The position numbers and the translations under genes are program-made. Positions 762 to 26,867 of a DNA stretch of 26,987 nucleotides are shown one piece after another. Location: positions 1-26,987 of IMG/VR virus record IMGVR_UViG_3300032281_000325; one strand, 5' to 3'. Positions within the stretch are counted from its first letter, which is position 1; each line of letters opens with the position of its first letter. This stretch comes from a virus (Duplodnaviria > Caudoviricetes). Below the pieces are notes generated by a model. It searched no databases, was not told the origin of the DNA, and saw only the letters and a program-made list of their open reading frames with translations.

Positions 762-790
762 TTGACTTTTTGGTTGTTTGAGTGTATAAT
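762..790 (+). promoter_or_regulatory. sigma70-type early promoter
   Basis: TTGACT (762-767), 17-bp spacer, TATAAT (785-790), upstream of the GGAG RBS and ATG at 825. Confidence 0.85.
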
Positions 791-824
791 GTTACACATA
801 GACAATAAGAAATGGAGCTAAAAT

Positions 825-1034
825 ATGTTTGAAACCTGTGTAAAACAACTGATAACAATTACCCTGGACAAGCCCGTGACTACGGAGTTCTATAATGGAA
901 CCCTGTTTGTCAGCACTATTACTGAAGACCAAGCCCGTAGGGTGTTCCATGCACTAAGCAAGAGCTTGGGTTTGGGTAAAGTCCAAGTGAGCCCCATTGG
1001 TGATACGGGCGAATTTGCCTATGATTTCGTGTAA
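825..1034 (+). CDS. small early hypothetical protein (69 aa)
   Basis: ORF with its own promoter and a GGAG RBS at 814-817. Confidence 0.8.
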   Translation: MFETCVKQLITITLDKPVTTEFYNGTLFVSTITEDQARRVFHALSKSLGLGKVQVSPIGDTGEFAYDFV

Positions 1035-1067: not shown

Positions 1068-1096
1068 TTGACAACGGGCGATTTTGGTGCTATAAT
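1068..1096 (+). promoter_or_regulatory. perfect-consensus sigma70 early promoter with extended -10
   Basis: TTGACA (1068-1073), 17-bp spacer, TG at 1088-1089, TATAAT (1091-1096). A leader hairpin AAGCAG-ACCA-CTGCTT follows at 1112-1127. Confidence 0.9.
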
Positions 1097-1160
1097 ACTA
1101 CTATAATAAGAAAGCAGACCACTGCTTCACAAAGTTAAACTGACATAGGAGCAATAGACA

Positions 1161-2165
1161 ATGCAAGGTTTCGTAAAAATCAAGAACGGTAGTTACCGTA
1201 ATCAAGAAGTAAAAGATGAAGTGTTTCCACTCATCAAACAATTCCAATTAGGTTCAAAAGGTGGGTATATCACAGTAGACGGCACTGGTCGTTTTGGTAA
1301 AGACAAAATCCGTGTCACGGTAGCAACACCTACAGATTATGAATTGGTAGAAGACCCAGCGACGGCGGTTGAAGCTGTAGACCCAGCAACAGAAGAACAA
1401 CGTATCAGTGAAATCGCAGAACGTTTTGAAATCTTAGATGACATGACCAAGGCAGTATTAAACGGAGATATCCGTGCTATGATCGTAGCAGGACCTCCAG
1501 GTGTTGGTAAGTCATTTGGTATTGAAGCACAGTTAGAAAAAGCAAACCTCTTTGATCAGATCTCTGGCCGTAGAGTTAAATCGGAAATGATCAAAGGTAC
1601 GGCATCCGCATTAGGTATGTATAAGGCACTTTACAAGTATAGTGATAGTAATTCAGTTGTGGTATTTGACGACTGTGACAGCATTTTACTTGATGATGTA
1701 TGTCTTAACTTGCTTAAAGGCGCACTTGACTCAGGTAAAAAACGTAGGATCTCATGGTTAGCAGATAGCCATAGCCTACGCAACGAAGGTATTCCAGACC
1801 AGTTCGATTTCAAAGGCGGAGTTATCTTTATCACAAACTTAAAGTTTGATCAAATGAAATCGCAAAAAACACGTGATCACTTGGATGCTATCCAATCACG
1901 CTGTCACTATTTGGATCTGACTTTAGACACTATGCACGATAAGATCTTGCGTATCAAACAGATCGCTCGCACAGGTGTATTATTTGAAGACTATGACTTT
2001 GATCAAATCCAACAGGATGAAATCATTGACTTCATGGTCACTAACCAAAACAAGTTACGTGAAGTATCATTGCGTATGGCTATCAAGATCGCTCAGTTAC
2101 GCAAGAGCTTTCCGTTGAAATGGTCTGCGCTGGCTTCAACAACTTGTATGAAATCATCAGTTTAA
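1161..2165 (+). CDS. AAA+ ATPase
   Basis: Walker A GPPGVGKS, Walker B VVVFDDCD, sensor-1-like FITN, arginine-finger SRC motif. RBS TAGGAG at 1146-1151. Confidence 0.85.
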   Translation: MQGFVKIKNGSYRNQEVKDEVFPLIKQFQLGSKGGYITVDGTGRFGKDKIRVTVATPTDYELVEDPATAVEAVDPATEEQRISEIAERFEILDDMTKAVLNGDIRAMIVAGPPGVGKSFGIEAQLEKANLFDQISGRRVKSEMIKGTASALGMYKALYKYSDSNSVVVFDDCDSILLDDVCLNLLKGALDSGKKRRISWLADSHSLRNEGIPDQFDFKGGVIFITNLKFDQMKSQKTRDHLDAIQSRCHYLDLTLDTMHDKILRIKQIARTGVLFEDYDFDQIQQDEIIDFMVTNQNKLREVSLRMAIKIAQLRKSFPLKWSALASTTCMKSSV

Positions 2166-2176
2166 GGAGAAACAAT

Positions 2177-2347
2177 ATGTATGACAAATTTAGAACGTGG
2201 ATGTATATAAACTCAGTGCAGGTTACTTGGTTCCTAATAGGTTTATTTACAGCGTTTGGTATCCGAGATTTAGATATCAGTAATTGGGTTGGTGCTGGAC
2301 TTAATTTTGGTCTTGCCTATATCAATTATCTTTTAAGAAAGATCTAA
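2177..2347 (+). CDS. small membrane protein (56 aa, two hydrophobic segments)
   Basis: AAGGAG RBS at 2164-2169 favours ATG 2177 (MYDKFRTW) over the track start at 2120. Hydrophobic segments VTWFLIGLFTAFGI and WVGAGLNFGLAYINYLL. Confidence 0.75.
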   Translation: MYDKFRTWMYINSVQVTWFLIGLFTAFGIRDLDISNWVGAGLNFGLAYINYLLRKI

Positions 2348-2392
2348 TATCAAAACTGCGCGATCAGTATAAACTAAAAATTAAATATTTGT

Positions 2393-2472
2393 ATCAATTT
2401 CTATCGCACTTTTTATTGTCTAGCTCCTAGTGCGATAGCCTCAAAGCCCAAATAATATTTGGGCTTCTTTTT
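2393..2472 (+). ncRNA. candidate small regulatory RNA with anti-RBS loop (5' end approximate)
   Basis: TAAATA at 2382-2387, then a 10-bp perfect stem CTATCGCACT/AGTGCGATAG (2401-2410/2429-2438) around an 18-nt loop complementary to the upstream gene leaders, then an intrinsic terminator. Confidence 0.5.
2444..2472 (+). terminator. Rho-independent terminator
   Basis: Stem AAGCCCAAAT/ATTTGGGCTT (2444-2453/2457-2466) followed by CTTTTT. Confidence 0.85.
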
Positions 2473-2487
2473 GAGATATATATTAGT

Positions 2488-3054
2488 ATGTTAAAACCAT
2501 ATCATGAACTTGACTGCCCTAATCAGGAAATAATTTCTGCTAAGGTGTTAGAATACTTACAACCGTATCTAAATTCTTTACCAGATCAGGAAGTTGAATT
2601 ATGGCACAAATTAAACACCATTGAATTAGTAAGAGCAGTACCAGAATTAGTTTCTTGGTATAAAGATCTTAATTTGATAATAAAAGAATGTAGCATTACT
2701 GTAGTTAAAGAAAAGAAAAGCGTTGGGTTGCATATTGACGAATTGCCGGTGGTGGCTAAAATTAATTTTCCTATACTTAATACCGCTGGTAGTTATAATC
2801 TTTGGTATCATGTACCTGAAAATATCCTTAAAGAAATTCCTCAGATAACTAATCATTTTGGTAATAAATTTTACGATCTAGGCAAAGTAGATCTTAATTT
2901 CTGTGATGAAATAGGACGGATAGAATTAACTAAACCAATAGTTTTTAATTCCCAACTACCGCACGCTGTTGAGCTTGGTTCATCAGCAAAAGTGCCAAGA
3001 ATTGTATTAGCCTGTACATTTTTTAAAGAGCCAATTAATCTTTTAATGTCTTGA
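2488..3054 (+). CDS. putative 2OG-Fe(II) oxygenase / cupin-fold protein
   Basis: HxD...H metal triad pattern (GLHIDE ... LPHAV) and a distal Arg in PRIVL. Confidence 0.55.
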   Translation: MLKPYHELDCPNQEIISAKVLEYLQPYLNSLPDQEVELWHKLNTIELVRAVPELVSWYKDLNLIIKECSITVVKEKKSVGLHIDELPVVAKINFPILNTAGSYNLWYHVPENILKEIPQITNHFGNKFYDLGKVDLNFCDEIGRIELTKPIVFNSQLPHAVELGSSAKVPRIVLACTFFKEPINLLMS

Positions 3055-3079
3055 CAACCAATACTAACCATCGTATACT
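3051..3079 (+). promoter_or_regulatory. sigma70-type promoter for a leaderless transcript
   Basis: TTGACA (3051-3056), 17 bp, TATACT (3074-3079). The ATG is only 6 nt downstream and there is no SD sequence. Confidence 0.8.
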
Positions 3080-3085
3080 AATAGT

Positions 3086-4204
3086 ATGTTAACCTATCCT
3101 CACGTGGAAGACTATTTGGAATATCTCGCTGGCTATGATCCAGGTCTTATGGCTATAATATCTCCCACTACACCAGGTAGAATTAGCCTGGCACGCTATG
3201 ACATACAGATAGTTGATAGTATGGCCAATACCACAGCTTTTGGTACGGCATTAACTGATCGCCAAGCTGAACTAGCAGTTAAATTGATACTAAAATACCG
3301 CAGACAGTTTGCCAAATTGGGCATAGATGTTATGCCAGTTGATAATCCTGTGTTTCGTATGGCTCCACGTAAGATGGATCGTACTAAGAGCATTTGGATA
3401 GATGATGGCAGTATCCATGTTAAATTTCCTTATGATAATGTCCTGATCAAAGATTTGCAGACATTCCGTGAAACCAGTCAAGGCCGTGCTCACTACGATC
3501 GAAACAGCAAGGTATGGTATCTGGCCCTAACAGAATATAATATCAATTGGATAGTGCCATGGGGTAACACAAATGGATTTGAAGTTGATAACATGGTGCG
3601 TGAAATATTCTATCAGATACTTGAGTGCGAACAGCAACCTTTTGAGATTAAACTGGTCCAAGACAAGAAAGGTTATAAAATAATTAACGCACCTAATAGT
3701 CTAATAGAATATATCGATATCCATGCAGGCGGCTTTGGCTTAGATAATTTAGTTAAATTAATTGATCATGCTGGCCTATGTGGTTACATTATAGACGATG
3801 CTATTAATGTTCCTGACCCGGCGTTAAGATACATCGGCAGTAAGCACAGCATTCATTTACCACCAAGTCCAGAAAATCTAAATATGATATTTGATTATGC
3901 TGAAATAACTAACCGTTATCCTATTTGCATTTATAACCCTACACTGTTTGATATTGACCTATCAAGATTTGAAGAGGACGACATAGTACGATTTGATAGA
4001 AATGGTAAGACAAAGACTAGCGAATATGATCCATATCGTGTTAAAGTAGTATATGCTCAGAAGATTCCTGCGACCTGGGACTTTCCTGTACCCTTGTTGG
4101 TGACTACATTTGAGATGATGTTTGGTGGACGCAAGATGGACTGGACTCGTAGAGCAGAAAAAATTATCTACTACGGCACAACACAAATAAGAGAAACAAA
4201 TTAA
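3086..4204 (+). CDS. hypothetical protein with possible HARP-like domain
   Basis: 372-aa ORF with its own promoter. The segment VKFPYDNVLIKDL...YDRNSKVWYL resembles the HARP pattern. Confidence 0.7.
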   Translation: MLTYPHVEDYLEYLAGYDPGLMAIISPTTPGRISLARYDIQIVDSMANTTAFGTALTDRQAELAVKLILKYRRQFAKLGIDVMPVDNPVFRMAPRKMDRTKSIWIDDGSIHVKFPYDNVLIKDLQTFRETSQGRAHYDRNSKVWYLALTEYNINWIVPWGNTNGFEVDNMVREIFYQILECEQQPFEIKLVQDKKGYKIINAPNSLIEYIDIHAGGFGLDNLVKLIDHAGLCGYIIDDAINVPDPALRYIGSKHSIHLPPSPENLNMIFDYAEITNRYPICIYNPTLFDIDLSRFEEDDIVRFDRNGKTKTSEYDPYRVKVVYAQKIPATWDFPVPLLVTTFEMMFGGRKMDWTRRAEKIIYYGTTQIRETN

Positions 4205-25603: not shown

Positions 25604-26844
25604 AACTATTTGAAATAAAAGGTCAGACTCCGGAATTTCTGCTTACAGAAAGCAAGAACGTCCACCTCGAGCATCTTGAAGATCTAATCTTTAATCGTGG
25701 CTATGCAGGTGCTGAAGAAGCTCTTAACTATATAGACGGCCTACGCCACATGTTGGCAGAAGGCACAGGAACGACCACACAGCTAACAGTTAAATGGGAC
25801 GGAAGTCCGGCTATCATCTGCGGCACCGATCCCGCTGACGGTCGTTTTTTTGTGGGCACCAAAGCAGTGTTTAGCAAGGGCGAACCCAAGCTCTGCAAGT
25901 CAGCGAAAGATATACAAAACTTCTATGGTGATCGACCTGAGCTAGCAGAAATATTACTATCAGCACTGAAATATCTCAGCAAGTTAAATATTGGTGGAGT
26001 AGTACAAGGTGACTTGATGTTTACTCCTGGTAAAGTCACTACGGTATCAGTTAACGACGAAGACTGCTATGTATTCACTCCTAACACTATTACCTATGCA
26101 GTGCCGATTAACAGCCACCTAGGCGAACGTATCGCAGGTGCACAATTAGGTATCATATTCCATACTACTTATTCGGGTGCTAATACAATAGAAGAAATGA
26201 CTGCTAGTTTTGGAGTAAACGTAACAGGATTTACGCAGACCAAGGCAGTATGGTTCGATGATGCTACATATAAAGACTATACAGGTATTGCTAGTTTAAC
26301 TCCTACAGAAGATGCTAAAATACAAAAATATCTATCAGCAACTGCTAAGACCATGCAGAAAATTGGACAGCAACGCTTTGATATCATTTTACAAGACAAA
26401 GAATTTAGTAGAATGGTTAAACCTTTTATCAATAAACAGATACGTGCAGGCAGCCAGGTAGTAGACCCCACAAAATTCTTACAGGATTTTATCAACCACT
26501 ACGAACAAGAAATGATGAAAGGTATTGAAGAATTATCAGGTGGACCACAAGGACGTGCAGCACAGGGCAGACTAGCCAAGATCAAAGCCAAAGAACAATG
26601 GATCGCCGACAACAGTAATAATTTAACAGGTATATTAGCCACATATAAACGTATTATAGAGCTCAAAGGCATGCTGTTACGCAAACTACAACAGGTAGAA
26701 GGTATAGGAACATTCCAAAGGACCAATGACGGTTACAAAGTAACTGCTCCTGAGGGCTTTGTGGCTATAGGACACAATGGCGGTGCTGTTAAACTAGTGG
26801 ATCGACTACAGTTCTCTAGGACGAATTTTTTATCAAAAGCATAA
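25600..26844 (+). CDS. ligase/nucleotidyltransferase-fold phage protein (DUF6267-like)
   Basis: HLEHLED, motif I TVKWDG, VQGDL, EGFV, VKLV in ligase-superfamily order. Confidence 0.65.
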   Translation: MKLFEIKGQTPEFLLTESKNVHLEHLEDLIFNRGYAGAEEALNYIDGLRHMLAEGTGTTTQLTVKWDGSPAIICGTDPADGRFFVGTKAVFSKGEPKLCKSAKDIQNFYGDRPELAEILLSALKYLSKLNIGGVVQGDLMFTPGKVTTVSVNDEDCYVFTPNTITYAVPINSHLGERIAGAQLGIIFHTTYSGANTIEEMTASFGVNVTGFTQTKAVWFDDATYKDYTGIASLTPTEDAKIQKYLSATAKTMQKIGQQRFDIILQDKEFSRMVKPFINKQIRAGSQVVDPTKFLQDFINHYEQEMMKGIEELSGGPQGRAAQGRLAKIKAKEQWIADNSNNLTGILATYKRIIELKGMLLRKLQQVEGIGTFQRTNDGYKVTAPEGFVAIGHNGGAVKLVDRLQFSRTNFLSKA

Positions 26845-26867
26845 ATAATTACATGCGCGAAAGCGTA
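26841..26867 (+). promoter_or_regulatory. late promoter plus 5' GAAA-tetraloop hairpin
   Basis: ATAAATA at 26841-26847, TGCGC-GAAA-GCGTA at 26854-26867, RBS TAGGAG at 26875-26880. Confidence 0.65.

Follow-up and report, generated by a model that had tools for sequence, protein, structure and literature searches.

A conserved hairpin-terminator element behind a phage ATPase operon as a candidate trans-acting antisense RNA

The 26,987 nucleotides analysed here, referred to as the window, are a 27-kb fragment of an uncultured jumbo-type phage. Immediately behind an early operon that encodes an AAA ATPase, the window contains a hairpin followed by a terminator. The hairpin loop shows complementarity to the ribosome binding site of the ATPase gene, which raises the question whether this element specifies a small RNA and, if so, which leaders are its targets. 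An earlier note on this DNA had proposed a late-expressed small RNA with a loop antisense to the ribosome binding regions of all three upstream early genes. The positions given there for the TAAATA motif, the stem, the loop and the leaders of all three genes were verified in every case, and the features considered in this study are the following.

762..790, plus strand: sigma-70-type promoter of the small gene 825, TTGACT-17-TATAAT
799..820, plus strand: leader of gene 825, a possible weak target, in which 10 nt match the 5' half of the loop and the Shine-Dalgarno (SD) sequence is GGAGCTA
825..1034, plus strand: early gene of 69 aa, function unknown
1068..1096, plus strand: consensus sigma-70 promoter of the ATPase operon, 12/12 match
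1146..1163, plus strand: SD sequence and start codon of the ATPase gene, the best-supported loop target in the window
1161..2165, plus strand: AAA ATPase, phrog_1250, 334 aa, 40% identity to a PA5oct protein
2177..2347, plus strand: gene of 56 aa, function unknown, whose leader is an unsupported target
2382-2387, plus strand: TAAATA, phage promoter core, with a start predicted at A2393 from the spacing
2393..2472, plus strand: predicted small RNA of about 80 nt, from promoter spacing and folding
2401..2438, plus strand: perfect 10-bp stem (2401-2410/2429-2438) around the 18-nt anti-RBS loop 2411-2428
2444..2472, plus strand: intrinsic terminator (2444-2466) plus T tail

The element, its promoter motif and the early leaders of the window

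The segment 2388-2475 folds as a 10-bp stem with an open 18-nt loop, followed by the terminator. The folding energy of -27.4 kcal/mol (z -5.81) was reached by none of 200 shuffled sequences, so that the hairpin proposed in the earlier note is clearly stable in comparison with shuffled controls, and the loop 2411-2428 was predicted to be unpaired to 76-100% in three sequence contexts. The element accordingly combines a conserved structure, an accessible seed and an intrinsic terminator, which are the features of a trans-encoded base-pairing sRNA. A search of the window against Rfam 15 yielded no match at the gathering threshold, in agreement with the earlier impression that no described family is represented; the best weak match was SdsR_RyeB with 25.8 bits versus 38 needed, and the 16-nt loop region lay outside the model alignment. 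Likewise, a literature search covering articles without their supplements revealed no published description of the element. Directly 5' of the TAWATA motif, the window carries an additional small and variable hairpin (2355-2368), the loop of which often contains GTATA and which has a counterpart at the equivalent place in the loci L001, L002, L005 and L008. A minus-strand promoter and a small open reading frame in the loop were also considered and, judged from the sequence, dropped as not conserved.

The claim that all three early genes are addressed by the loop held to a different degree for each of them. The ATPase leader, which reads TAGGAGC-AA-TAGACAATG at 1146-1163, paired with the loop at -18.9 kcal/mol and ranked first among the 33 leaders of the window; an equally good pairing was obtained with 4 of 1000 shuffles that preserved the anti-SD core, and this leader is thus above chance in the comparison with shuffled controls that the earlier note had suggested. 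The leader of gene 825, with TAGACAATAA at 799 and GGAGCTA at 814, was borderline (-12.2/-12.7 kcal/mol, rank 3 of 33, p about 0.05). Of 22 homologous leaders, 19 retain its 10-nt match TAGACAATAA. With structure included, however, cofolding gave a net gain of -3.8 kcal/mol, near the values of two control leaders (-0.7 and -3.0 kcal/mol); the corresponding gains were -11.2 kcal/mol for the ATPase leader and -2.5 kcal/mol for that of gene 2177. The start of gene 2177 is preceded by AGGAG and ACAATA. Since the loop pairs with this leader at chance level (-10.4 kcal/mol, p 0.35) and the extra ACAATA match is present in only 3 of 41 homologous leaders, gene 2177 was rejected as a target. Apart from these pairings, the ATPase leader contains a 5' hairpin at 1112-1127 that is preserved by paired changes in L011-L013, and the AGACA seed occurs in two to three copies in the leaders of L019, L025, L027 and L028.

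The TAAATA motif was evaluated in 18 contigs comprising 2.74 Mb. The first ATG after TAAATA was located at offsets 4, 5, 6 and 7 in 66, 61, 23 and 35 cases, respectively, and at each of the offsets 0-3 and 8-14 in 1-8 cases; this sharp peak of leaderless starts 4-7 nt downstream indicates that TAAATA behaves as a promoter core. It also precedes the tail-tube gene of contig G036 and resembles the late promoter core of T4, which is given as TATAAATA in a review of T4 (PMC3014915); the arrangement TAAATA-N5-A in the window fits such a T4-type late core. In the loop class of the window, 19 of 22 distinct upstream sequences contain TAWATA-N5-purine before the stem (0.38 in shuffles), 12 of these 19 being the TATATA variant that is devoid of a start peak elsewhere. 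The motif was present in 2 of 27 upstream sequences of other loop classes, and the position of the TAAATA promoter is kept only in the clade of the window and one sister group. In the other classes the hairpin often starts 5-45 nt after the stop codon. Many loci have a U-rich stretch ahead of the stem. An own promoter of the element is thus likely in the clade of the window, as far as the DNA sequences tell. Late expression, as originally proposed, is plausible for this clade only. A gp55-like sigma factor was not named among the 75 G036 proteins of 135-215 aa, and a phage Hfq protein was found in none of five contigs.

Among contigs from RNA libraries the element was detected once, in a 151-nt piece that begins some 30 nt upstream of the predicted start and is compatible with read-through or with DNA. 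In ten RNA runs (shares 0.05-0.10), assembled contigs cover the ATPase gene of relatives. Many genes of these phages look leaderless, in that TAAATA precedes the ATG by 4-7 nt or TATAAT by 5-6 nt; examples in the window are 2477-2490, 3051-3088 and 26842-26855, and others occur throughout the 18 contigs. An anti-SD RNA would not be able to act on mRNAs of this kind.

Conservation of the element and concerted change of loop and leader

The conservation of the element was examined in 161 loci, comprising the window and 160 related ATPase loci (the best 80 of 369 and the best 80 of 521, with duplicates between the two collections), by a hairpin scan that was blind to the leader sequence. A terminator was found in 141 of the 161 loci, and in 109 of these 141 a hairpin with a large loop is located just before it. 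The scan missed a few visible hairpins, and its pick in L063 was wrong and excluded from later counts. A separate pattern scan resulted in 47 hits, of which 33 have the ATPase gene upstream, seven were cut short and six lack the stem. The remaining hit, L222, is a full hairpin with terminator, and the ATPase gene is absent from the 1063 nt upstream of it. The position at the 3' end of an operon along with complementarity to a ribosome binding site of the same operon is the arrangement known from RNAs of the OppZ/CarZ type.

An alignment of 19 elements of the window's loop class revealed compensatory changes in five of the nine predicted stem pairs and an almost invariant 3' part of the loop. 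Moreover, the own loop paired better than the median loop of foreign classes in 42 of 45 distinct pairs of loop and ATPase leader, a comparison that did not separate the two closest loop classes. The changes between loop classes include the SD sequence itself, with GGGCTAGAAA leaders being paired with TTTCTAGCCC loops, and in G039 the loop has a 12-nt match that is located upstream of the SD sequence. According to a quick ATPase tree, the same loop classes appear again in different branches, and no element was seen in about a dozen lineages, the rows L109, L115 and L116 that are labelled 'none' in this tree being detector misses. These data clearly indicate that the element is a real, conserved RNA element: its structure, its complementarity and the joint variation between loop and leader are apparent from the sequences themselves, and the pairing partners are supported by covariation. 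The expectation of a conserved antisense element in related phages was thereby borne out.

Tandem copies of the loop, two to three in each case, are present in G037, G038 and G048. In the respective loci L511, L510 and L509 these hairpins with the same anti-leader loop follow right after the ATPase stop codon, and the last hairpin also serves as the terminator in G037 and G038. On the minus strand, such tandem hairpins with GGA-containing loops resemble sponges of the CsrB/RsmZ type, and the functional molecule might then be a decoy from the opposite strand that carries a copy of the leader motif and titrates an RNA-binding repressor. The energies of single-hairpin folding are compatible with this as they favour neither strand (24:23). 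However, the covariation term is -3.04 for the plus strand versus -1.22 for the minus strand, the terminator carries its U-tract on the plus strand in the loci listed, the plus strand is also that of the promoter-like motif, and GGA is absent from the motif of G039. Terminator polarity and the covariation term thus favour the plus strand, and a decoy appears extremely improbable. The count of G-U versus A-C oppositions (32:5) was set aside as strand evidence, because the finder allows G-U on the plus strand.

Matches on other transcripts in long relatives

No distal target is visible within the window; the reach of the loop was analysed in long contigs of relatives. Whole-contig sliding RNAduplex scans were swamped by G-U-rich noise, so that a ranking of leaders only was used; the gene starts come from a simple in-house caller and some of them are wrong, such as that of phrog_18771 in G039 and the cut ATPase gene in G017. 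The 201-kb contig G008, reached through the pattern scan, has a loop identical to that of the window. The top leader among 289 in this contig belongs to csgF (PF10614), located 55 kb from the ATPase gene, and shows a perfect 14-nt match across SD sequence and AUG versus 8 nt for the own ATPase leader. This 14-mer is unique among the sense positions of the 201 kb. However, AGGAGCTAGACAATG, as the 15-mer matched in G008 reads, occurs frequently at gene starts of viruses that are not related (about 210 stretches), and the match in G008 is therefore weak when taken alone. With a different loop, csgF again provided the top leader among 187 in G019 (13 nt versus 8 for ATPase). The leader of phrog_18771 matches 14 nt of the loop in G037, or 17 nt with stem bases, versus 6 for ATPase, and csgF matches 12 nt versus 7 for ATPase in G048.

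A ranking over 181 ortholog families placed csgF, the ATPase, a curlin-like exported protein, phrog_18771 (a 93-aa membrane protein) and DUF4337 at the top. The phrog_18771 leader was among the top six in seven of nine long contigs (184-551 leaders each) and that of csgF among the top two in five of eight; in the six long contigs fetched after the choice of families, the respective numbers were four and three. Permutation of the loops among genomes, which like the Fisher values ignores relatedness, G019, G037 and G048 being one clade, gave p values of 0.0024 for phrog_18771 (nine contigs), 0.0014 for csgF (eight contigs) and 0.0008 for the ATPase, and the curlin-like family was not significant (p 0.24). 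Complementarity to putative targets on other transcripts, conserved by covariation, was found in G008, G019, G036, G037, G042 and G048; it was weak in G009, the closest relative with csgF (6-nt match only, rank 5 of 83), and failed in G038 and G039. More precisely, a csgF match is missing in the long relatives G017, G036, G038 and G039, and a phrog_18771 match in G038 and G039. The ATPase leader is the sole clear match in G002-G005 and likewise in G039, and in the 210-kb contig G001 the element was not found.

In several relatives the strongest matches belong to TAAATA-led genes for membrane or exported proteins that are far from the ATPase operon. The gene of phrog_18771 is located directly upstream of csgF-csgG in the phages Melnitz and HTVC008M, where it heads the csgF-csgG cluster (L614 and L615; a YvrJ-like signal is weak), and csgF and phrog_18771 are on these grounds likely to form one functional module. 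A role in the timing of lysis has been proposed for phage CsgFG (PMC9004378). Neither an ATPase match nor the element was found in these two phages, and PA5oct, where the ATPase is present, showed no matching hairpin. These negatives are weak, since the top rows of the de novo scan also lacked the elements already known from G008 and G038. PA5oct ncRNA004 has no match to the ATPase leader (6 nt), and the PA5oct homologue of the ATPase (L081, 2995-4149) is labelled 'thioredoxin' in GenBank. All nine csgF leaders that were folded (G008, G009, G017, G019, G022, G036, G037, G042 and G048) contain a hairpin occluding the SD sequence, which in eight of them includes TAAATA, as in T4 gene e. The strongest of these hairpins was observed in G036, whose loop is without a csgF match.

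Early leaders provided a further class of matches. In genomes whose loop predicts this seed, the combination of GGAG with CGA was present in 34 of 390 SD leaders, versus 2 of 357 elsewhere, and that of GGAG with CCA in 7 of 122 versus 8 of 625, whereas the seed class of the window, GGAG with CTA, was not enriched (3 of 235 versus 4 of 512). The predicted seed was also enriched behind sigma-70 promoters, with 7 of 20 leaders in G037 and 11 of 19 in G048. The earlier view of early-gene leaders as a target class is consequently supported in relatives, where sigma-70 early leaders share the seed of their lineage. Long inverted repeats extend over several early promoters in G038 near 365,000-369,200.

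One alternative is that the element acts in cis only, in that the ATPase operon mRNA stays intact and its 3' end folds back onto its own ribosome binding site as in icaR. This would agree with the link of the element to the ATPase operon in 33 of the 47 pattern hits, with the folding of the loop onto the leader in a naked 1103-2472 RNA and with the lineages in which the hairpin follows the stop codon by 5-45 nt and is devoid of a promoter motif; moreover, it is still compatible with G002-G005 and G039. However, the best match is on another transcript than that of the ATPase in four of the nine long contigs (G008, G019, G037 and G048), where pairing within a single mRNA cannot select 12-17-nt matches exceeding that of the own operon. 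Nor can it select an invariant loop while the ATPase leaders of the same clade drift, and an exclusive action in cis is therefore unlikely.

The complementarity might also be passive, with early promoter cassettes of the PeSL type recombining under a bias for strong SD sequences and the hairpin being an accessory of the terminator into which a piece of leader has been copied. Such cassettes homogenise early promoter and SD regions in T4-type phages according to PMC2839356, and the 15-mer matched in G008 is common. A passive origin gives no account, however, of why the copy is inverted, lies in an unpaired loop and follows every leader change, nor of why two non-homologous TAAATA-led genes share one 12-14-nt leader, and it is rated as very improbable. 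Better distal matches than those of the own ATPase, the advantage of the own loop and the shared early seed together point to a trans-acting, multi-target antisense sRNA. This reading, suggested for the window itself, gained support from the relatives, in which the own loop pairs better than swapped loops (p about 0.002) and distal families appear, but not from a distal target in the window.

Proposed mechanism and comparison with known systems

We consider it fairly probable that the hairpin and terminator at 2401-2472 specify a trans-acting antisense sRNA of about 80 nt that covers SD sequences and start codons and blocks ribosome loading. In the window, the free RNA would be transcribed from the TAAATA promoter at 2382 with a start near 2393; in lineages without the TAAATA motif the early ATPase mRNA may release it from its 3' end. 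The loop would nucleate on the SD region, extend across the start codon and prevent binding of the 30S subunit. Pairing with the ATPase leader would provide feedback on the own operon, and further predicted targets are the sigma-70 early genes with the leader seed of the lineage as well as a TAAATA-led envelope module of csgF, the curlin-like exported protein and the phrog_18771 membrane protein, to which some genomes add DUF4337 and a holin with three transmembrane segments. As the RNA accumulates, early translation would be damped and membrane-active proteins would be kept below a threshold, which may help to time the disruption of the envelope or lysis; this threshold would act on leaders that are also closed by cis hairpins in the style of T4 gene e. 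The release of the RNA, the sign of the regulation and the timing of lysis are those steps of this scheme that we infer.

Pairing in trans might also be real without being simple repression, in that the RNA shields GGAG leaders against nuclease attack, directs processing or is itself titrated by abundant early leaders. The RegB nuclease of T4 is described to cut early mRNAs in GGAG (PMC3014915), and the occurrence of early and TAAATA-led targets together is a poor fit to one repression schedule. Against this, the duplex covers the SD sequence and often the AUG, and matches to the RegB or RegA families were absent from five contigs in searches run without a positive control. These non-repressive roles are regarded as improbable.

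The timing of translation in lytic T4-type phages is generally attributed to proteins and cis hairpins. Tentatively, and with somewhat less than even confidence, we suggest that a family of lytic phages of about 360 kb possesses a self-encoded sRNA regulon with a lineage-specific loop 'postcode' that has been re-tuned repeatedly, and that this regulon silences sigma-70 early genes and restrains a curli-pore/holin-like module as a developmental or lysis timer replacing RegB/RegA of T4. The element is in any case a candidate trans-acting sRNA with named targets and natural compensatory alleles, and can for this reason be tested in E. coli reporters without phage culture. Used as a probe, the loop predicts that csgF, the curlin-like protein, phrog_18771, DUF4337 and the holin form a single co-regulated module. 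This is relevant to the role of the phage-encoded CsgFG proteins, for which the timing of lysis has been proposed (PMC9004378).

The element probably represents a new family of sRNAs that are encoded by phages and act in trans against ribosome binding sites. The C4 antisense RNA of phages P1 and P7 likewise directs single-stranded regions against the ribosome binding sites of own genes; the element described here differs from C4 in fold, size and position and is without an Rfam match. In T4, leader hairpins of the genes e, soc, 49 and I-TevI time late and lysis genes by SD occlusion (PMC3014915). The csgF leaders of the present phages are SD-occluded as well, and the shut-off of early mRNAs in T4 also acts through GGAG, but the T4 devices are cis structures or a protein nuclease, unlike the trans RNA predicted here. 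According to the 2010 review that describes them, T4 had yielded no functionally characterised small RNA that regulates in trans (PMC3014915).

An RNA with several targets is SviR, the trans-acting sRNA of the PLE satellite that lowers translation of the lytic phage (bioRxiv 10.1101/2022.04.08.487710). SviR acts for the satellite against the phage, whereas the element here is a predicted RNA of the phage itself, and the two are likened by description. In icaR of Staphylococcus aureus, an anti-SD motif in the 3'-UTR pairs with the SD sequence in that mRNA's own 5'-UTR (PMC3868564). Unlike this short motif in one mRNA, the present loop has a lineage-specific match of 8-17 nt that is best on other transcripts in four relatives. 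OppZ and CarZ of Vibrio cholerae are autoregulatory sRNAs derived from 3'-UTRs (PMC7398697). Like these, the element occupies the 3' end of an operon, extends as far as the terminator and is predicted to pair with its own transcript against translation; unlike them, it is encoded by a phage, displays its seed in a closed 18-nt loop and has its own promoter-like motif and predicted distal targets. By analogy, the element would thus resemble OppZ and CarZ in position and self-targeting, and a multi-target trans-acting sRNA in reach.
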